64,000 nucleotides of DNA from an uncultured virus (IMG/VR IMGVR_UViG_3300019373_000270) (Duplodnaviria; Heunggongvirae; Uroviricota; Caudoviricetes). Where the stretch lies: IMG/VR virus record IMGVR_UViG_3300019373_000270, one strand, 5' to 3'. This document shows, in pieces, positions 7,359 through 45,771 of this stretch (the first letter of the stretch is position 1; each line of letters opens with the position of its first letter). The notes under the pieces were generated by a model. The model searched no databases, was not told the DNA's origin, and saw only the letters and a program-made list of their open reading frames with translations. The position numbers were made by a program, and so were the translations under genes.

Positions 7359-8318
7359 ATGACCCAATACATTATTAGAAATAAAACATTAGAAAAATGT
7401 TTATTAAACAAACCGGTGATCGATCTTTCTCTATATACCGAAATAAAATATATATCTGAAAACGCTTTTGAAAAGTGTACTGAAGTCAGTAAAATAATAC
7501 TTCCAAAATCAGTTCGGAAAATAAACGATATGACTTTTTCTAACTGTCGCAGCCTTGAATCAGTAGATATTCCTTCTTCAGCAAAAATAGAAGGCAACCC
7601 CTTTTTAAATACGCCTTTATATAAAAAAACAATGAGGTCAAAGGGATATTTTATAATAAATCATACCCTGATAAATAAAGCTACTGATGATATAGATCCT
7701 AGTGAATTCAATATGTTACGGAGAATAAACTGGTCTGCATATAATTCAGACCAAAAACTTAGAGAACTAAACTTAAGTCAGGCAGTTGATCTCGAATACA
7801 TCGAACCGTATTCATTTTATCAGTGCAGCTCTCTGAGTGCTGTTGTTTTTTCTTCCGAATGTCCATTAAAAACAATAGGAAAACAAACGTTTGCTTTTTG
7901 CGGTAATTTATATCATGTAGACTTACCTGCCTCTATCGAAGACATCAATAAGCAGGCGTTTGCAAAAACAAAATGGCTGGAAAAGCAAATGGATAGAAAT
8001 GGAAATTTGATTTATAATAATATTCTTATTTCAAAGAATGCTATTTCACAACGAGAGTACGTCTTACCTGATACTATCAAATACATCGGTTCGGAGGCTC
8101 TTTCAAGGGAACCATTCAAAAAAGTTTATCTAAACGAAGGATTAAAGAAAATATTCAATAACGGTTTCGCTTATTGCAGCTCTCTGGAAGAAATATATTT
8201 TCCTGATTCAATAAAATACATCGGTATAGGCGCTTTTGAGGGGTGTCATAATCTTAAACTTGAAAATATTTCACTATCTTTTGATGTCATTCTTGATAAT
8301 AATTCATTTGATTTTTAA
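7359..8318 (+). CDS. BspA-type leucine-rich repeat (LRR_5) protein
   Basis: Repeated IxxxAFxxCxxLxxIxLPxSIxxI units; no signal peptide. Confidence 0.85.
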   Translation: MTQYIIRNKTLEKCLLNKPVIDLSLYTEIKYISENAFEKCTEVSKIILPKSVRKINDMTFSNCRSLESVDIPSSAKIEGNPFLNTPLYKKTMRSKGYFIINHTLINKATDDIDPSEFNMLRRINWSAYNSDQKLRELNLSQAVDLEYIEPYSFYQCSSLSAVVFSSECPLKTIGKQTFAFCGNLYHVDLPASIEDINKQAFAKTKWLEKQMDRNGNLIYNNILISKNAISQREYVLPDTIKYIGSEALSREPFKKVYLNEGLKKIFNNGFAYCSSLEEIYFPDSIKYIGIGAFEGCHNLKLENISLSFDVILDNNSFDF

Positions 8319-22766: not shown

Positions 22767-23129
22767 ATGATGATGAACATAAATAGTACTAGACGAATTA
22801 GAAGAGGTCAGGTGTATTATGCTGACCTCGGAAACGGTATGGGGTCCGAGATGGCAGGAGAAAGGCCTGTTGTTATTATTCAAAACAATATGGGTAATAA
22901 GTATTCTCCGACTGTAACGGTCGTACCTCTTACATCGAGATTAAAAAACGATCAGCCAACGCATTTTTATATCAAAGCAGGTACAGCAAATCTTAGCAGA
23001 GATAGTGTAGTGCTTGCTGAAGGAATAAGAACAATATCGAAAGACCGTTTGAAATACTATATAGGAGATTTTGACGAACCATTCATGAACAAACTGGACG
23101 ATTCTGTCCGGATACAACTAGGATTATAG
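22767..23129 (+). CDS. mazF: PemK/MazF-family endoribonuclease, orphan
   Basis: RRGQVYYADL..GMGSEMAGERPVVIIQNNMGNKYSPTVTVVPLTS...IRTISKDRL. Confidence 0.88.
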   Translation: MMMNINSTRRIRRGQVYYADLGNGMGSEMAGERPVVIIQNNMGNKYSPTVTVVPLTSRLKNDQPTHFYIKAGTANLSRDSVVLAEGIRTISKDRLKYYIGDFDEPFMNKLDDSVRIQLGL

Positions 23130-28361: not shown

Positions 28362-28531
28362 AAAAATTAAACCATATATAATTTTTTTCTTCGAAGATAA
28401 TCTGCTATAATAATAATGTAAGCATTTTTCAATAAGTATTTTGCTTGCGCCTTACGTCTGTTTTATTTCAGACAGTACCCGTTCATGACGGAGAAAACTA
28501 TATATTTTTAATTACGAAAGGAAGAACCCAA

Positions 28532-29104
28532 ATGAAGACAAGAAGAATACTGGCAATTGTTGCCGCAATGAGCATGATCATATCGTTTGGAGCAATGACT
28601 GCTAATGCAAGCTCGGACATTATCGAGGACCTGCCCATCGAAACTTTACCTACAGACGAGGTTCCTGTGGAGGAAGATCCCGCAGAAGATGCACCGGTCG
28701 AAGATGAACCGATAGACACACCATCTGACAACAGCTCTGAAACTGAGAACACTCCTGCTGCTGATACTCCTGCAGATAACACTCCTGCAGATGATGTTCC
28801 TTTTGATGCTGCACCCACTGAAAGCGGGGACTCGGAGCCAACTGAGGAAAGTGAGAAGCCTACAGATAGTTCTCAGAACGATGTTCCTGTGGCAGCAGGA
28901 TCTGAAACTGAGATCAAGGATTCAAGTACCGGTAAGGTATCCGAATCAAGTTCAAAAACCGAATCAAAGAATTCATCCGGTAATTCTTCGGTAAAGGCAG
29001 AAAGTAAGTCGGCAAATAATCCTGAAACAGGCGCAGCTACCATGAGTTTCGGTCTGGCGGCAATTGCTGCAGGTGCAATGATCGTAAGCAAGAAGAGAAA
29101 CTAA
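28532..29104 (+). CDS. sortase-anchored (NPxTG) acidic, disordered surface protein
   Basis: Signal peptide (ANA-S); P/D/E/S-rich body; NPETG, TM helix and KKRN tail. Confidence 0.85.
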   Translation: MKTRRILAIVAAMSMIISFGAMTANASSDIIEDLPIETLPTDEVPVEEDPAEDAPVEDEPIDTPSDNSSETENTPAADTPADNTPADDVPFDAAPTESGDSEPTEESEKPTDSSQNDVPVAAGSETEIKDSSTGKVSESSSKTESKNSSGNSSVKAESKSANNPETGAATMSFGLAAIAAGAMIVSKKRN

Positions 29105-29120
29105 GAATTCTTTTGTGCTG

Positions 29121-29189
29121 AGTAGGCTGGTTCATTGGGAGAACGTGTAGAATATACAAAATAGCGGGTTCGATCCCCGCTGCCTACCT
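29121..29189 (+). ncRNA. tRNA-like RNA with shrunken anticodon arm
   Basis: Acceptor AGTAGGC/GCCTACC; D arm GTTC-ATTGGGA-GAAC; TGTA-GAATA-TACA; T arm AGCGGG-TTCGATC-CCCGCT. Confidence 0.7.
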
Positions 29190-29259
29190 GTAGTAGTTAT
29201 ACTCTCATACTACTTATAATTTCTTTTCGACACCCCGGTTATTATTATAACCGGAACAA

Positions 29260-29313
29260 CGGATCGTTTCTCATCGGAGAGAATGTATACAGGTTCGACT
29301 CCTGCCGATCCGA
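29260..29313 (+). ncRNA. 54-nt tRNA-like RNA lacking the anticodon arm
   Basis: Perfect acceptor CGGATCG/CGATCCG; D arm TCTC-ATCGGA-GAGA; 6-nt linker; T arm CAGG-TTCGACT-CCTG. Confidence 0.7.
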
Positions 29314-29345
29314 TTTTGATCTATAACTACGTTTTGGAGGAAGAA

Positions 29346-30233
29346 ATGTTTTTTAAAAAAAGAAAAAATATGATCAATGATATAAAGCTAAATATTTATA
29401 CTAAGGATACATTTCTTGATATTTATCCTGATAAAACAGTTTCTGACTGGGAAAAATGCTATAGGCCTTATAATATTGACAGATTTTTACTTCTGAATCT
29501 TTTTTCACTAGCTAAAAATTATGATTTTTCCGAAACATCAAAAATATCATTGTATACCATAGACGATGAATACATTAGCTGGTTAAAATCAAATTCATTG
29601 GAACACAATACAAACAACCTTCAAAAATATAATAATTCGATTTCTGAGCAAGATTGCATAAGGTTGTCACAAAAGAATAATTCTCTGGTTCAGATAGATG
29701 TGAAATTTTTGGAGATCGAGCTGAAAAATAAAAGTCAAACCGGTTTTTATAATGGCACTAAACTGAATAAAGATCAGATCGCTGCTTTATCATCATTCCT
29801 ATCAGATAATTACGAAACTTCAAGTATTTATCTGCCGGGATATATTATACCTAAAGATAATGTAATAAATGAGATGCCTAAGATACGAAATATTGGGATC
29901 GCTCATTTCATCGATGATATCGACGTCAGCATAGCATCTTACGAAAAATGTGTTGCTTCAGCCGAAAATACGTTCTCACTTTTTATCCCTTATGAAAATA
30001 CGTTCTCACTTTTTATCCCTTATTTTACGTGCAAGACTTTGCCTCCGATTTTGTCATGCAACAAAATATTCAAAAAGAAAGAACGTTCGGATACATGTAT
30101 TACTAACAAAAATCTATTTGATATAATGACAAAATATTTTTGTTATGAGGGAGACCTCGTTGTATCCAAACTCAATCTAATTCAACGATTTACCATGTAT
30201 GATAAGTATGTTTCGCTGTTTGATCAAAGCTGA
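29346..30233 (+). CDS. hypothetical protein
   Basis: GGAGG RBS; the ORF-track start at 29283 lies inside the tRNA-like element. Confidence 0.7.
   Translation: MFFKKRKNMINDIKLNIYTKDTFLDIYPDKTVSDWEKCYRPYNIDRFLLLNLFSLAKNYDFSETSKISLYTIDDEYISWLKSNSLEHNTNNLQKYNNSISEQDCIRLSQKNNSLVQIDVKFLEIELKNKSQTGFYNGTKLNKDQIAALSSFLSDNYETSSIYLPGYIIPKDNVINEMPKIRNIGIAHFIDDIDVSIASYEKCVASAENTFSLFIPYENTFSLFIPYFTCKTLPPILSCNKIFKKKERSDTCITNKNLFDIMTKYFCYEGDLVVSKLNLIQRFTMYDKYVSLFDQS
29964..30023 (+). repeat. exact 30-bp in-frame tandem duplication
   Basis: GAAAATACGTTCTCACTTTTTATCCCTTAT twice (ENTFSLFIPY twice). Confidence 0.95.
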
Positions 30234-30272
30234 AACAAATCAAATAAAAAAACGAAAAAAGGAGTAATTTTT

Positions 30273-30560
30273 ATGGCACAAATCAAGGAAAACAAGTTTT
30301 TGAATCTGGAAGCTGTCGGAACTGTCGGTTTCAATAACGATACTGACAGCAAGAGTATCTCTGTAAGAATATCTTCCAATTCCGAAAATGCAGACGAAGA
30401 ACTTAACATGTTTGAAGCTGCTGTTCAGGGTTATTTTATGAAGATACTTCCTGCGATAGTTCCTGAGCAGAGAAAGAAAGCTGTTATGCAGTACATTGAA
30501 AGAACAAGAACAATGCTTATCAATAGCTTTGTTGAAGATGTGATCGAGGAGGAAAGATAA
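30273..30560 (+). CDS. hypothetical protein
   Basis: AAGGAG RBS. Confidence 0.75.
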   Translation: MAQIKENKFLNLEAVGTVGFNNDTDSKSISVRISSNSENADEELNMFEAAVQGYFMKILPAIVPEQRKKAVMQYIERTRTMLINSFVEDVIEEER

Positions 30561-30561
30561 A

Positions 30562-30978
30562 ATGAATAGTATGATGAATTCGATAGAAGCAGCTGAGATA
30601 TCCGAAAAGGATTTTGAAGCATTGATAAAGAGCGCAAACACTCACAAACTGGCGATCAAAACATCTGCAGAAGCTGATTTTAACGAAAAGGAAGAAATGT
30701 CGGCTGAAGTCGAAGTAACAATGAGCCATAATGATATTACAAACAGTTTCTATCTTATGGAAGCGTTAACACTGAGAACTTTTGATAAGATCATAAAATT
30801 TGTTAAGCCGGAAATGAAATATGAATACATTTCGGATCACTTAGACAGAATGAGAACTTATCTTATGTCTCAGATCGAGAACTTAGAAGAGAAAGAGACT
30901 CTTCCGCTGAACTTTGATACTCCGGATAATATGAAGGAAGCAATAGGGAGTATAATGGAAAGGTTTGGTGAACGATGA
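30562..30978 (+). CDS. hypothetical protein (paralogue of 30273-30560)
   Basis: GAGGAGG RBS. Confidence 0.75.
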   Translation: MNSMMNSIEAAEISEKDFEALIKSANTHKLAIKTSAEADFNEKEEMSAEVEVTMSHNDITNSFYLMEALTLRTFDKIIKFVKPEMKYEYISDHLDRMRTYLMSQIENLEEKETLPLNFDTPDNMKEAIGSIMERFGER

Positions 30979-31301
30979 ACGAAAGAAGAGATCTTTTAGC
31001 TAATCCGGAACTTATTTTTTCCTCAAAATCAGACATTCACACCAGGCTGAGAAACGGACTGGAAGAGGTATATCTTTTTGACGGATCGATAAACTCAAGC
31101 ATTTCTCAGATATTCGACATACGAAATTATTTACTGTCATTAAAACAAATGATCTGTGATATCAGCCTTACTGTTCGTTTATCAGAATTCTATATTCTTA
31201 TTTTTCCTATGTTATTCAATGCAGCTCCCGGTAGCTACAACAGATTTTCCCCGACCAATATCAAGTATTCCTATTATGCCAGAAAAGCGATAGGAAGGTA
31301 A
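30975..31301 (+). CDS. hypothetical protein
   Basis: ATGA overlap; terminator at 31307-31334. Confidence 0.6.
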   Translation: MNERRDLLANPELIFSSKSDIHTRLRNGLEEVYLFDGSINSSISQIFDIRNYLLSLKQMICDISLTVRLSEFYILIFPMLFNAAPGSYNRFSPTNIKYSYYARKAIGR

Positions 31302-31340
31302 ATGTTATCCCCGATTTTTTATCGGGGATTTTTTGTTTAT

Positions 31341-31399
31341 TTTTATCTGATTGAATTTTCGTATATAATCAGTAATGAGAGCGATATTGATGGCTGGAG
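31341..31399 (+). promoter_or_regulatory. element-type promoter plus leader box for ssb
   Basis: TTTTAT-17-TATAAT(31364); TGATGGCTGGAG at 31388. Confidence 0.7.
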
Positions 31400-31486
31400 A
31401 AGTGTTGGATCAAGAAAATACACTTATAACCACTTATCGAACTCATATACGAATTTTTAATATTATACTCAAGGAGGAAAAACATT

Positions 31487-41336: not shown

Positions 41337-41395
41337 TTTTATTCTTCTGAATTTTCGCCTATAATATTTTTAGTATATTTAATTGATAAATGGAG
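41337..41395 (+). promoter_or_regulatory. element-type promoter plus leader box (also serves as RBS)
   Basis: TTTTAT-17-TATAAT(41360); TGATAAATGGAG at 41384. Confidence 0.7.
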
Positions 41396-41404
41396 GAACC
41401 AAAA

Positions 41405-43576
41405 ATGATAACTGAAAAAATTATGGGAAAATATCAAAATTATATCTACCGTGATTTGGAAAGCGGATTTTCAATTTTCAGGGTGAGACCGCAGTTATCT
41501 GCCAATATTGCGGATAAAATGAAAGGAGGATTCATTATATGCAAGGGAGTGCTTGCCACTGTAAATACTGAGATCCCGCTTGAATTCTCAGGCACATGGG
41601 AATCAAACGATCATGGCTGGACTTTCTGCGTTATGGATTATACAGAGAAATCATGGGATGATATGATAACCGTAGATTTTCTAAAAAGTATAAAAGGCAT
41701 CAGCGATGCTGTTGCCAAAAAAATAATCGATGAATTTGAAGATTTTTTTACCGAGATCAAACACCCCGGTGCGTCAGCCAGACTTTCTATGGTATCCGGC
41801 GTAACGGCAGACAAATGTCAGCAAATTATTAAAGAAATAACAGATCAAGCTGATAAAAGAAAAATAATGAAATACCTGTTTCTTCACGGGGCAAAAATGC
41901 TTCACGTAGATCGGCTTTATGCCAACTACGGCGTTGAAGGAATAGAAAAACTAAAAAAAGAACCGTATGAGATCGGACTGCAAATAGGGCTGTCACTAAA
42001 AGCCTGCGACTCTATCGCTTTGTCACAGCAAAGAGACATGAAGGATCAAAAACGTATAAAGGCATACATAGAAAACTATCTTCAAGCACAAATGATGTCA
42101 GGAAATATTTATATCAAAGAAGCTCAGTTGGTCCCTGAAGTCTTGAAAGTTTTAAATTTTGATACATCAGGCAGTGACAGTTTCAGAATTCTTCTAGCAT
42201 TGAAAGGCTCTGACGATGTTTGCTACGTCGAAGACACCGACGGATCAAAAATATACCTGAAATATCTGAAAAAAGCCGAAGATAATCTAGCTGAACAGAT
42301 AATCAGGCTGCAATCTGCCGGACTAAAAACAAATTATACCGACGAGTATGCTGATTATGCTGAATCGATCGCAGGTTTCAAGTTCGCACCGGAGCAAAGA
42401 GGGGCGTTCAGGCTTCTGAGAAAAACAGGTATAGGGATACTTACAGGTGGACCCGGAACAGGCAAAACCACTACTGTAAAGGGTATTATCGATGCTTATG
42501 AGAAAATGTATCCAAATAATAAAATAAAACTATGTGCGCCAACAGGAAGGGCAGCGCAAAGGATGACCGAATCTACAGGAAGACCTTCGACAACTATTCA
42601 CCGACTCCTTGAATACAGACCTTTTGAAGGCAAAGAGTCTGATATAAGGTGTAAAAACGAATACGATCCCATTGATGCTGATTTTATAATCGTGGATGAA
42701 GTAAGTATGCTCGATTGTCAGCTTGCTTCTTTGTTCTTTTCGGCTGTCAAGTCGGGAGCATTAGTGATCATGGTCGGAGATATACATCAGCTGCAATCAG
42801 TCGGAGCAGGTGATGTTCTTAACGACATGATAAAATGTCAGATGATACCTGTCGAAAGACTGATAAAAACATACCGTCAGGCATCAGACAGCAATATAAT
42901 CAAGAATGCGAACGAAATAAATAACGGACATGATCATCTAAAGTTCGCGGATGACTTTGAAGTATATCAGACGCAGAATATCACAGAAAAAATCGTAGAA
43001 ATAGTGAAAGAGTATCATAGATCTGATGAACTCTTCTATGCACAGATCTTATCTCCGTCACACAAGAACGACGGTGGTGTTACAGAGATAAACAATCGGC
43101 TGCAGGAGGAACTTAATCCGGGCATAGTTCCCGAATTGGTCTATGGACGCAATAGAAAATTTAAACTTCATGACAAAATCATCATGATAAAAAACAATCC
43201 CGAAAAGGGATATTATAATGGTGATGTTGGCTACATCACCGAAATAAGAGATGAAGAGATTAATGTAAAGATACAGGATCAGGAAATCAGATTGAGTAAA
43301 GCGAATATAGATGATGTCAGACTGGCATACGCTATGACGATCCATAAGAGCCAAGGTTCTGAATTTCCGGTCACTATCATTTCTTTACCTAATTCGGGCA
43401 TGTTAAAAAGAAACCTTCTTTACACAGCTGTTACACGCGCTAAAAACAAAGTGATAATCGTACAGCAGCAGGGTTCTATATCTATGGCTGTAAAAAGAAA
43501 TGAGGTAGGAAAAAGAAACACAACACTCGTTGAAAAATTACACGATATAATGATCGAGAGATGTCTCGAACTATAA
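41405..43576 (+). CDS. recD2: RecD2-family SF1B helicase (copy 1)
   Basis: GGPGTGKTT, APTGRAA, TIHRLL, DEVSM, GDIHQL, AYAMTIHKSQGSE, YTAVTRAK. Confidence 0.92.
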   Translation: MITEKIMGKYQNYIYRDLESGFSIFRVRPQLSANIADKMKGGFIICKGVLATVNTEIPLEFSGTWESNDHGWTFCVMDYTEKSWDDMITVDFLKSIKGISDAVAKKIIDEFEDFFTEIKHPGASARLSMVSGVTADKCQQIIKEITDQADKRKIMKYLFLHGAKMLHVDRLYANYGVEGIEKLKKEPYEIGLQIGLSLKACDSIALSQQRDMKDQKRIKAYIENYLQAQMMSGNIYIKEAQLVPEVLKVLNFDTSGSDSFRILLALKGSDDVCYVEDTDGSKIYLKYLKKAEDNLAEQIIRLQSAGLKTNYTDEYADYAESIAGFKFAPEQRGAFRLLRKTGIGILTGGPGTGKTTTVKGIIDAYEKMYPNNKIKLCAPTGRAAQRMTESTGRPSTTIHRLLEYRPFEGKESDIRCKNEYDPIDADFIIVDEVSMLDCQLASLFFSAVKSGALVIMVGDIHQLQSVGAGDVLNDMIKCQMIPVERLIKTYRQASDSNIIKNANEINNGHDHLKFADDFEVYQTQNITEKIVEIVKEYHRSDELFYAQILSPSHKNDGGVTEINNRLQEELNPGIVPELVYGRNRKFKLHDKIIMIKNNPEKGYYNGDVGYITEIRDEEINVKIQDQEIRLSKANIDDVRLAYAMTIHKSQGSEFPVTIISLPNSGMLKRNLLYTAVTRAKNKVIIVQQQGSISMAVKRNEVGKRNTTLVEKLHDIMIERCLEL

Positions 43577-45771
43577 GAAAGGCTGAAGAAAAAATGACAA
43601 TAACAGGAAAAATAGATAAAATTTTTGCGATTAGAGGAGACTGGGCATCTTTATTGGTGTCCGGTATCCCTGACGAAGAAAAAACAAAGGCAGGCTTTGC
43701 TTTATCTACGAAGCAAATAATTTTTGCCGGGATGATCTCTAATCCGGTAGAAGGCTGTGCTATGAACTTTACAGGTGATTGGGTCAATCATCCTAAGTAC
43801 GGTGTTCAGTTTAAGGTCACATACTCATCTCCTGTATTGAACGATACAAGTTCTCTTTTTAAGTATCTGACTTCAGGGTTTATAAAGGGATGCGGCGAAA
43901 AAAATGCTGAAATGATAATCGAAAAATTCGGAGATAAAACGATAGATGTTATCAGTAATGATTATGAAAAACTTACCGAAATACCTAAGATCGGAATTAA
44001 AAAAGCAAAAACGATACATGATTCATATATCAAAACTTGCGGAATGATGCATGTGATGAATCTGTTTAAAGGTCAGATAACGCAAAATAAATGTATGAAA
44101 ATACATGATACGTATGGCGGCAAAGCTGAAAAAGTAATAAAAGAAAACCCTTATCAGCTTATATGCGATATAAGAGGGTTCGGATTTAAGACCGTTGACG
44201 AACTTGCTGTCAATTCAGGGATAGACTTGAATGACCCCAGAAGAATAAAGGCAGCTATAATCCACACTCTTGACACTATCAGCAACGACCAGGGGCATTG
44301 CTATATTTTACTTGACGAACTGGGAGATAACATCAGGAGTCTTGTAGATAATATTGACGTTTCTGATGACGTTATAATCAGCGAAATAAAGAAGCTGTAT
44401 AAGGAAGAAAAAATTATTCTTGAAAAAGAAGATGATTCTACAATCCGAGTTTATTTGAAAGAACTTTACGATGCAGAAGATGCTCTGGCTTATAAGATCA
44501 GCAGCATGAAGAGAAGAAGAAACACGGTGTATAAAGAAGATATCATCGATGCTGTCATTGACACGATAACCGAAGATAGCACGAATCCTGATTTTGAGTT
44601 TGAACCCCTTCAGATCGAAGCGGTAAAAACATCACTGAGAAATCATGTAAGCATCATTACCGGAGGTCCCGGAACAGGTAAAACAACTATAATAAACGCA
44701 GTTGCAAAATCTGCACTTGCTATGGATTACGGAGTTATCTTACTGGCACCCACAGGAAGAGCCTCAAGAAAACTTGCAGAAAGTACAGAAATGGCTGCAT
44801 TCACGATAGCAAAATACGTCGTGACTTCTGGATACGTTATAGATGAAGTCACAAGAGCAAAAAAACACAAATTGTACATTGTGGATGAAACATCTATGAT
44901 AGATATCGAAAATGCAGCTAAGCTGTTCTCCTTGATAAGAGAAACAGATACCGTAGTACTGGTCGGAGATATAGACCAGCTTCCTTCGATCGGGGCAGGC
45001 AATTTCTTCCGTGACCTTGTATATTCCGGTCTTGTACCTAAGACAAAACTCACTTTTACTCACAGATTTAAAGGTTCCATCGCTGAAAATGCCAAAAACA
45101 TAAATCACGGTTCCTGTAAACTGAAAGAGGACAGTGAATTCGAAATAATAAAGGTAAAAGATCCTATGAAAAGACAGGAACTTGTTTTGAGTAAATACTA
45201 TGATGAACTTAGAAAAGCAGGAGGAAATTATAGGAGAATACAGATAATCGTGCCAATGAGACAACGAGGAGATACATCTACCAACGTATTGAACAAAATA
45301 ATACGCGATAGAGTCAACCCTTTAAAACCTAAGCAGCCGGTTTTTGGCGCAAAACAGTTTAGAGTAGGAGACAGAGTGATGCAAACGTCAAATAATTCCG
45401 AACTGGAAGTAGCAAACGGCGACTGCGGTATCGTGTGTGCCATTGATACTGAGAATTCCACAATGGATGTAATAATGGATGTCGGAGGCAGAAAAACTTA
45501 CGACAGTCTGCAATCGTCAGATCTTGTTATCGCATACGCAATTACAGTTCACAAGAGCCAAGGTTCAGAGTATATGACAGTGATATCCGCCTATGGAACT
45601 TCGGACTATGTTATGCTTCAGCGAAACCTGCTCTATACAGCTGTTACACGCGCTAAAAATAAAATGATACTGATCGCAGACCCGGCTGCTATTTACAGAG
45701 CAGTAAACAATATAGAACCTATAATCAGAAATACTTCGATCAATGAAAAAATTGCGAAGTACGACAAGTGA
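43561..45771 (+). CDS. recD2: RecD2-family SF1B helicase (copy 2)
   Basis: HPKYGVQF, GGPGTGKTT, DETSM, GDIDQLPSIG, AYAITVHKSQGSE. Confidence 0.92.
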   Translation: MSRTIRKAEEKMTITGKIDKIFAIRGDWASLLVSGIPDEEKTKAGFALSTKQIIFAGMISNPVEGCAMNFTGDWVNHPKYGVQFKVTYSSPVLNDTSSLFKYLTSGFIKGCGEKNAEMIIEKFGDKTIDVISNDYEKLTEIPKIGIKKAKTIHDSYIKTCGMMHVMNLFKGQITQNKCMKIHDTYGGKAEKVIKENPYQLICDIRGFGFKTVDELAVNSGIDLNDPRRIKAAIIHTLDTISNDQGHCYILLDELGDNIRSLVDNIDVSDDVIISEIKKLYKEEKIILEKEDDSTIRVYLKELYDAEDALAYKISSMKRRRNTVYKEDIIDAVIDTITEDSTNPDFEFEPLQIEAVKTSLRNHVSIITGGPGTGKTTIINAVAKSALAMDYGVILLAPTGRASRKLAESTEMAAFTIAKYVVTSGYVIDEVTRAKKHKLYIVDETSMIDIENAAKLFSLIRETDTVVLVGDIDQLPSIGAGNFFRDLVYSGLVPKTKLTFTHRFKGSIAENAKNINHGSCKLKEDSEFEIIKVKDPMKRQELVLSKYYDELRKAGGNYRRIQIIVPMRQRGDTSTNVLNKIIRDRVNPLKPKQPVFGAKQFRVGDRVMQTSNNSELEVANGDCGIVCAIDTENSTMDVIMDVGGRKTYDSLQSSDLVIAYAITVHKSQGSEYMTVISAYGTSDYVMLQRNLLYTAVTRAKNKMILIADPAAIYRAVNNIEPIIRNTSINEKIAKYDK

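Follow-up and report, generated by a model that had tools for sequence, protein, structure and literature searches.

Cutting marks with the shape of a tRNA are textbook knowledge in organelles and in a small number of nuclear RNAs of vertebrates. One of the latter is mascRNA (MALAT1/MEN-beta), which folds like a tRNA at the transcript's 3' terminus and is CCA-tailed after excision by RNase P and RNase Z; it keeps a stem resembling the anticodon arm, and the cut is immediately preceded by a protective structure. Minihelices are sufficient for RNase P, RNase Z and the CCA-adding enzyme, and tmRNA carries the G3:U70 alanine mark. The tRNA-like domain of tmRNA is described in PMC3929946 as the upper half of a tRNA, with acceptor and T arm, a reduced D region and no anticodon. 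According to PMC10731613, bacterial RNase P measures the 12-bp helix while its S-domain contacts the D- and T-loops; the same source lists as bacterial substrates other than tRNA the his operon mRNA, the M3 RNA of phage phi80, the C4 RNA of P1/P7, the 4.5S precursor and the pbuE riboswitch. The t-elements of plant mitochondria are non-canonical tRNA-like folds with the T arm GGTTCRANYCC, which adjoin mRNA ends in longer transcripts (Forner et al., 2007, PMC1920247). They are thought to direct cuts by RNase P and RNase Z, some being released with C/A tails, and their borders are mapped transcript ends with added C and A (PMC1920247).

Here we describe two elements of related shape, TLS1 and TLS2, in a stretch of 64,000 nucleotides (64 kb) that is called the window in the following. 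Its genes identify the window as a megaplasmid of Ruminococcus that is akin to pRUMAL01 of R. albus 7; the DnaE proteins of the two share 84% identity and the gene order agrees. Genes for a primase, NrdD, SSB, two RecD2-type helicases, DnaE and a PemK/MazF toxin are found in the region, nearly all of them on the + strand. A blastn search with the region retrieved no match from phages and only the NPXTG gene of pRUMAL01 from plasmids. Among viral contigs neither relatives of the flanking proteins nor matches to a TLS sequence pattern were detected. A 3-kb stretch of the region is present, completely or in part, in twenty public runs, of which the labelled ones derive mainly from sheep and bovine gut.

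The elements are part of a row of + strand features in the order DUF6465 gene, NPXTG gene, TLS1, H1, H2, TLS2 and three cassette genes (Table 1). The stop codon of the NPXTG gene is located 16 nt upstream of TLS1, and the gap from 29105 to 29345 contains four folded + strand units, namely the two elements and the hairpins H1 and H2. An initial sequence-only reading had described TLS1 and TLS2 arm by arm, and all of its structural statements match the sequence and the folds, including the statement that neither element encodes CCA. The hairpin which it had placed between them (H2) is real in the fold and is joined by a second one, H1. In TLS1 the 6-bp acceptor and the 6-bp T stem add up to a 12-bp stack. 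The T arm of TLS2 has the loop TTCGACT on a stem of 4 bp plus one A.C position; U8 is present and A29313 serves as discriminator. The fold z-scores of the elements are modest on their own (-2.18 and -1.96), and that of the hairpin region 29190-29259 is -4.13.

Table 1. Features of the TLS1/TLS2 locus and of the related minihelix on pRUMAL01. Positions refer to the window unless stated otherwise; the last column gives the identity between the window and the relative L047.
Feature	Position	Strand	Basis or remark	Identity with L047
PemK/MazF toxin gene	22767-23129		6 kb from the elements	
NPXTG gene, Ruminococcus-type cell-wall-anchored protein	28445..29104	+	NCBIfam NF033846 Rumino_NPXTG, E 9.5e-07	68% (3' coding part)
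TLS1, three-armed tRNA mimic	29121..29189	+	fold; Rfam tRNA-Sec 18.5 bits	arms 83% and 88%; middle 50%, with indels
TLS1 acceptor, 6 bp	29122-29127/29182-29187	+	plus A.C at 29121/29188	
TLS1 D stem, 4 bp	29130-29133/29141-29144	+	GGG in loop	
TLS1 mini hairpin replacing the anticodon arm	29146-29158	+	4-bp stem, 5-nt loop; not conserved	
TLS1 T stem, 6 bp	29163-29168/29176-29181	+	loop 29169-29175 = TTCGATC	
H1 hairpin	29190..29213	+	fold; 6-bp stem, conserved 11-12-nt loop	89% (aligned part)
H2 hairpin	29235..29254	+	fold; 8-bp stem, ends 5 nt before TLS2	80%
TLS2, tRNA mimic without the entire anticodon arm	29260..29313	+	fold; Rfam tRNA 26.9 bits	
TLS2 acceptor, perfect 7 bp	29260-29266/29306-29312	+		
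TLS2 D stem, 4 bp	29269-29272/29279-29282	+	GG in loop	
TLS2, 6 nt only in place of anticodon and variable arms	29283-29288	+		
Spacers				61-64%
First cassette gene, 295 aa	29346..30233	+	GGAGG 5 nt before ATG	
Two small cassette genes, 138 aa and 108 aa	30562..31301	+	ORF list; no significant family	
Terminator-type hairpin with T run, closing the cassette	31309..31335	+	alignment A5	
45-nt acceptor/T-arm minihelix of pRUMAL01	record 293274-293318 (L018 1983-2027)		Rfam tRNA, sub-threshold, 26 bits	

With canonical tRNAs (RF00005) the elements share the acceptor stem, the D arm with GG, the T arm and the discriminator; unlike these, they have an anticodon arm which is either deleted (TLS2) or reduced to 4 bp with a 5-nt loop (TLS1), so that decoding is lost. 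Like the tRNA-like domain of tmRNA as outlined above, they keep the upper half of a tRNA without an anticodon. However, the two halves of tmRNA enclose a tag reading frame and pseudoknots, neither of which belongs to TLS1 or TLS2, and the G3:U70 alanine mark is absent from both. The hairpin 4-5 nt in front of TLS2, and likewise of the pRUMAL01 minihelix, recalls the structure upstream of mascRNA, although TLS1 and TLS2 are unrelated to the latter in sequence and reside on a bacterial plasmid. The resemblance to t-elements lies in position and motif: TLS1 and TLS2 both match GGTTCRANYCC, are intergenic on the gene strand and occupy 3'-UTR and 5'-leader positions. In contrast to the organellar t-elements with their mapped ends, they are located on a bacterial plasmid, are known from sequence and folds, and have no sequence relationship to them. 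The source cited for RNase P also provides a precedent in operon mRNAs and phage RNAs that are cut at tRNA-like helices (PMC10731613); the substrates named there are mostly simple hairpins without T loop or elbow, whereas TLS1 and TLS2 keep the full elbow. Elements of this kind on bacterial plasmids were not found in the literature searched, which yielded only hairpin-type RNase P substrates and the organelle t-elements.

The Rfam tRNA model covered TLS2 completely, left the 17 positions of the anticodon arm as deletions and gave 26.9 bits, the gathering score being 29 bits; the corresponding E-value is 0.0022 for a search of 601 nt and 0.23 for the entire window. For TLS1 the best Rfam score, against tRNA-Sec, was just 18.5 bits. 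ARAGORN, which the sequence-only reading had proposed as a check, called neither element a tRNA; it reported no tRNA gene and no tmRNA across the 64-kb window. No Rfam family reached its gathering score within the window. The tmRNA family gave no significant match, only a partial one of 10.8 bits, and the mascRNA family gave none. Held against the features of a tRNA gene, the elements have the acceptor stem, the D arm with GG and the T arm with the T-loop motif; TLS1, TLS2 and the copy of TLS1 in the relative L047 all stay below the gathering score and lack an anticodon arm of 5 bp with a 7-nt loop. By score, TLS1 and TLS2 are thus outside tRNA, tmRNA and any other Rfam family. Two calls on the minus strand, an Rfam match named 'Plastid-ycf2' and a terminator-like structure at 29181-29163, were rejected as artefacts of the T arm.

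Since TLS1, TLS2 and the pRUMAL01 minihelix, as three element types, gave no consistent MAFFT alignment, a descriptor script was used instead of a covariance model. It demanded an acceptor/T stack of 12 bp in which no more than a single non-pair was allowed, together with the T-loop motif, up to 40 nt of interior and a D arm with GG. The scan found exactly two elements in the window, TLS1 and TLS2, and none in 300 block shuffles; after removal of the D-arm requirement 0.23 matches per shuffle were obtained.

Metagenome relatives were collected as four loci (L046-L049) in a scan with the SSB alignment. L046 and L047 are identical over this stretch and therefore count as one diverged comparison sequence; their flanking genes are ~71% identical to those of the window (about 29% diverged). 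They show the order DUF6465 gene, NPXTG gene, TLS1, H1, H2, terminator and SSB, with TLS1 at the same site after the NPXTG-anchor gene. No tRNA-like element was detected in L048 and L049, whose SSBs are 46-47% identical, and no further plasmid homologs of the L047 stretch were found. The L047 copy of TLS1 aligns with the Rfam tRNA model from end to end at 27.6 bits, with 7 nt for the 17 anticodon-arm positions. Its arms agree with those of the window in 43 of 50 positions according to the segment table and in 44 of 51 according to alignment A6 (about 84-86%), and at a divergence of 29% a stretch of 51 nt would show no more than seven differences with a probability of 0.009.

In TLS1 the acceptor, D and T stems comprise 16 pairs, and every one of them is kept in both sequences. 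The 32 stem nucleotides contain three substitutions, each of which preserves pairing, among them a compensatory change from C-G to U-A in the T stem and a change from C-G to U.G in the acceptor. L047 has no mini anticodon hairpin but a 12-nt linker instead, which indicates that the loss of decoding predates the split and that the arms have remained intact since. H1 is present in L047 with another stem sequence and register, and the RNAalifold consensus of H2 contains one change from C-G to U.G. Both wobble changes, in the TLS1 acceptor and in H2, result in G.U on the + strand and would give A.C on the other strand, which fits an RNA read from the gene strand. A pairing shuffle control (234/500, only two distinct sequences being compared) was uninformative because L046 and L047 are identical here. 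Near-identical copies from other runs have TLS1 and TLS2 unchanged and are too close to be informative; one of them, contig X9, has 39 differences in 3001 nt, none of which falls in 28900-29358, the differences being strongly clustered elsewhere.

Taken as a comparison of two sequences, these data suggest selection on the shape of TLS1 in its retained arms. The earlier proposal that shape is selected and decoding lost thus finds support for TLS1 in the L047 comparison, but selection is not supported for TLS2, which is a singleton. Intact tRNAs at this site in relatives, which would have spoken against the proposal, did not turn up: L047/L046 have a reduced element and pRUMAL01 has nothing. The comparison also bears on the explanation that both elements are decaying pseudogenes, i.e., functionless leftovers of plasmid tRNAs that lost their anticodon arms by internal deletion. 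This we regard as unlikely. The arms of TLS1 are better conserved than the adjacent coding sequence (86% vs 68-71%, P ~0.009), and all stem changes preserve pairing while the middle diverged freely with indels; neutral decay would be expected to strike the stems too. Moreover, three separate elements, the pRUMAL01 minihelix included, keep a perfect or near-perfect 12-bp stack and the T loop and lost only the decoding part. The explanation is nevertheless favoured by scores below the Rfam tRNA cut-off throughout, by the silence of ARAGORN, by the singleton state of TLS2 with an A.C in its T stem, and by several properties of pRUMAL01.

At the syntenic site pRUMAL01 carries a frameshifted NPXTG gene, a 44-nt spacer, a terminator hairpin and the SSB gene; TLS1, H1, TLS2 and the three genes of 29346-31301 are missing. 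The lack of TLS1 and H1 implies that the element is dispensable there, and the loss of TLS1 agrees with decay. In the frameshifted gene (L001 7245-7555) the part with the signal peptide stops at 7490, and another frame encodes the anchor. Real tRNA genes are part of this plasmid family, which likewise suits a pseudogene origin: ARAGORN and the descriptor scan gave 15 tRNAs on pRUMAL01, 14 of them in one array, and the Rfam tRNA model, run over the whole plasmid, gave 14 tRNAs and a match of 45 nt. None of the 15 tRNAs qualified as a parent of TLS1 or TLS2.

The 45-nt match is a two-armed minihelix without D arm and without anticodon arm, composed of a perfect 7-bp acceptor and a 5-bp T arm with a 13-nt linker. 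It is situated in the 3' region of an HU gene, with a real tRNA-Lys just upstream of that gene; a strong hairpin ends 4 nt before the minihelix, comparable to H2, which ends 5 nt before TLS2, and a run of eight T follows downstream. Its T arm is the same as that of a tRNA-Leu of the array, a further point in favour of a pseudogene. The descriptor scan of the 420-kb pRUMAL01 revealed no other reduced elements apart from a weak and probably chance match at 113758. TLS2 and the minihelix are singletons, as homologs were not found in the phage, plasmid and viral collections, and the HU/minihelix stretch had no further plasmid homologs. All elements, the minihelix included, occupy 3'-UTR or intercistronic positions on the gene strand. 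Apart from these features, pRUMAL01 has several TnpB genes and a weak match to HEARO, an IscB-type guide RNA (L001 21809-22036), of 42.9 bits, the family's gathering score being 83.

The window and L047 are homologous up to 29259 and again from just after ~31335, at the conserved SSB promoter block, where homology to pRUMAL01 resumes as well. TLS2, three genes and a terminator make up the intervening segment of 2.07 kb, which is absent from L047 and pRUMAL01, and TLS2 is its first feature, exactly at the left edge (29259/29260). The 295-aa protein of the first cassette gene had no match in Pfam, NCBIfam, PADLOC or PHROGs, and only two protein clusters were found for it, so that it is nearly an orphan; its Atlas model is poor and the AF2 pLDDT is 30.8. 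The gene is an orphan that evolves fast. It includes a perfect 30-nt tandem duplication (29964-30023). Compared with contig X9 it shows 26 differences, distributed over codon positions 1/2/3 as 11/8/7 without an excess at third positions. The block of SSB promoter and 5' leader (window ~31345-31486, L047 5860-5997, L001 7620-7759) is much better conserved than neighbouring DNA in the three plasmids.

The position of TLS2 at the point where L047 homology ends could be read as a sign of a role at the DNA level, either as a hot spot for recombination or integration of the type in which tRNA genes serve as att sites, or as a signal for single-strand initiation of the replicon. The replication genes around it (primase, SSB, DnaE and RecD2-type helicases) and the row of hairpins in the region would be in line with this. 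We consider such a role very improbable. An integrase was found neither in 29346-31301 nor next to the cassette, and TLS2 has no direct repeat at the right edge (31200-31400). The idea of att-site remnants, raised by the sequence-only reading as what might undo its own interpretation, finds no backing either, since no att-type repeat flanks the region, and remnants of this kind normally retain the 3' part of a tRNA only, whereas both acceptor strands are present here. Furthermore, the two wobble substitutions are tolerated only as + strand RNA, and conservation of the T loop and of the GG has no rationale in DNA.

We favour the reading that TLS1 and TLS2 are RNA-level tRNA mimics at which RNase P and RNase Z sever the operon transcript, following the principle of the t-elements of plant mitochondria, and assign it a probability of about 0.45, i.e., somewhat less than one half. 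Processing signals had already been among the suggestions of the sequence-only reading, and this remains the best of them in view of the L047 conservation and of the elbow, though it is something that we infer. The minihelix of pRUMAL01, as an independent third case, and the placement of all elements on the gene strand count in its favour; the singleton state of TLS2 and of the minihelix, the loss of TLS1 from pRUMAL01, the reliance on one diverged sequence and the sub-threshold Rfam scores count against it. According to this model both elements would be derived from tRNA genes. They would have retained for the enzymes the 12-bp acceptor/T-arm stack and the elbow of D-loop and T-loop, and with the loss of the anticodon arm they would no longer decode. 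Both would be transcribed within one + strand operon RNA; a sigma-70-type promoter upstream of TLS1 or TLS2 was not found. RNase P would then cut at the 5' side of each element and RNase Z after each discriminator, the latter because no CCA is encoded. The NPXTG message would thereby be detached from the one that follows it, and small tRNA-like RNAs to which CCA can be added would be set free. An influence on message stability may follow, and the hairpins upstream of the cuts may protect the new 3' ends. In a variant of the model, each element would be cut once only and the mimic would stay on the message as a folded cap, at the 3' end in the case of TLS1 and at the 5' end in the case of TLS2.

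Contigs from RNA libraries touch upon the transcription step. One of them (X15) extends from within the NPXTG gene as far as TLS1 without a gap (28914-29179), which we take as a weak hint of co-transcription of the two. It bears Illumina adapters at both ends, terminates within the T stem of TLS1 and may represent one short library fragment; it crosses the expected RNase P site at the 5' border of TLS1 uncut. Other contigs of these libraries cover neighbouring genes. Depth was 3-6, carry-over of DNA may be involved, and none of the contigs covered 29180-29862, which includes TLS2.

If the mimics are processed, bacterial mobile elements would use the tRNA-maturation enzymes of their host to divide operon transcripts and to set message ends, and would make small tRNA-shaped RNAs from these transcripts. 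Sites could then be predicted by a simple rule, a 12-bp stack plus elbow without anticodon arm, and sub-threshold 'tRNA' matches beside genes should not be dismissed as pseudogenes. The elements would also offer a compact and portable processing signal for the engineering of Firmicutes.

The released RNAs might instead act in trans, as sponge, decoy or cofactor for a partner that recognises tRNAs, such as a toxin, a modification enzyme, the CCA-adding enzyme, EF-Tu or a synthetase (in non-ribosomal use). Intact elbow and acceptor ends and the conservation of TLS1, H1 and H2 as a single block would be compatible with this, as would the PemK/MazF toxin gene on the plasmid and the fast-evolving cassette of unknown function behind TLS2. 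However, a linked partner gene is missing, the acceptor stems display neither G3:U70 nor another anticodon-independent identity mark, and no own promoter was found. The RNA libraries contained no abundant small RNA from this locus, a result to be read with the usual loss of small RNAs from such libraries. Decoys immune to anticodon nucleases such as VapC or PrrC, the other suggestion of the sequence-only reading, find no support: no gene for such a nuclease lies beside the elements, and an RNA that lacks the anticodon loop would make a poor and implausible decoy, as it gives these nucleases nothing to bind. On balance, action in trans appears quite unlikely, less so than a DNA-level role and more so than decay.

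A more far-reaching version of the processing model is in our view quite unlikely. It would have Ruminococcus megaplasmids possess a 'tRNA punctuation' system of their own, consisting of three-armed and two-armed mimics kept by selection, at which RNase P, RNase Z and the CCA-adding enzyme of the host cut operon RNAs and tail the products. The CCA-tailed products would act in trans on a tRNA-binding partner, and new cassettes would bring their own mimic as a portable signal for processing and expression.

A pattern scan of genome contigs gave 16 matches, all of them with the shortest gap, and 15 of these are ordinary tRNA-Val or tRNA-Pro genes. The remaining one is located on the minus strand of a Tannerella MAG contig (L005 2540-2620); it combines a good T arm with a hairpin of the anticodon type, but its ends fail to form a paired acceptor stem, and ARAGORN did not call it. 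In the window, tandem genes for RecD2-type helicases at 41390-45771 are followed by those for a CHC2 zinc-finger protein and DnaE, a module common to pRUMAL01.
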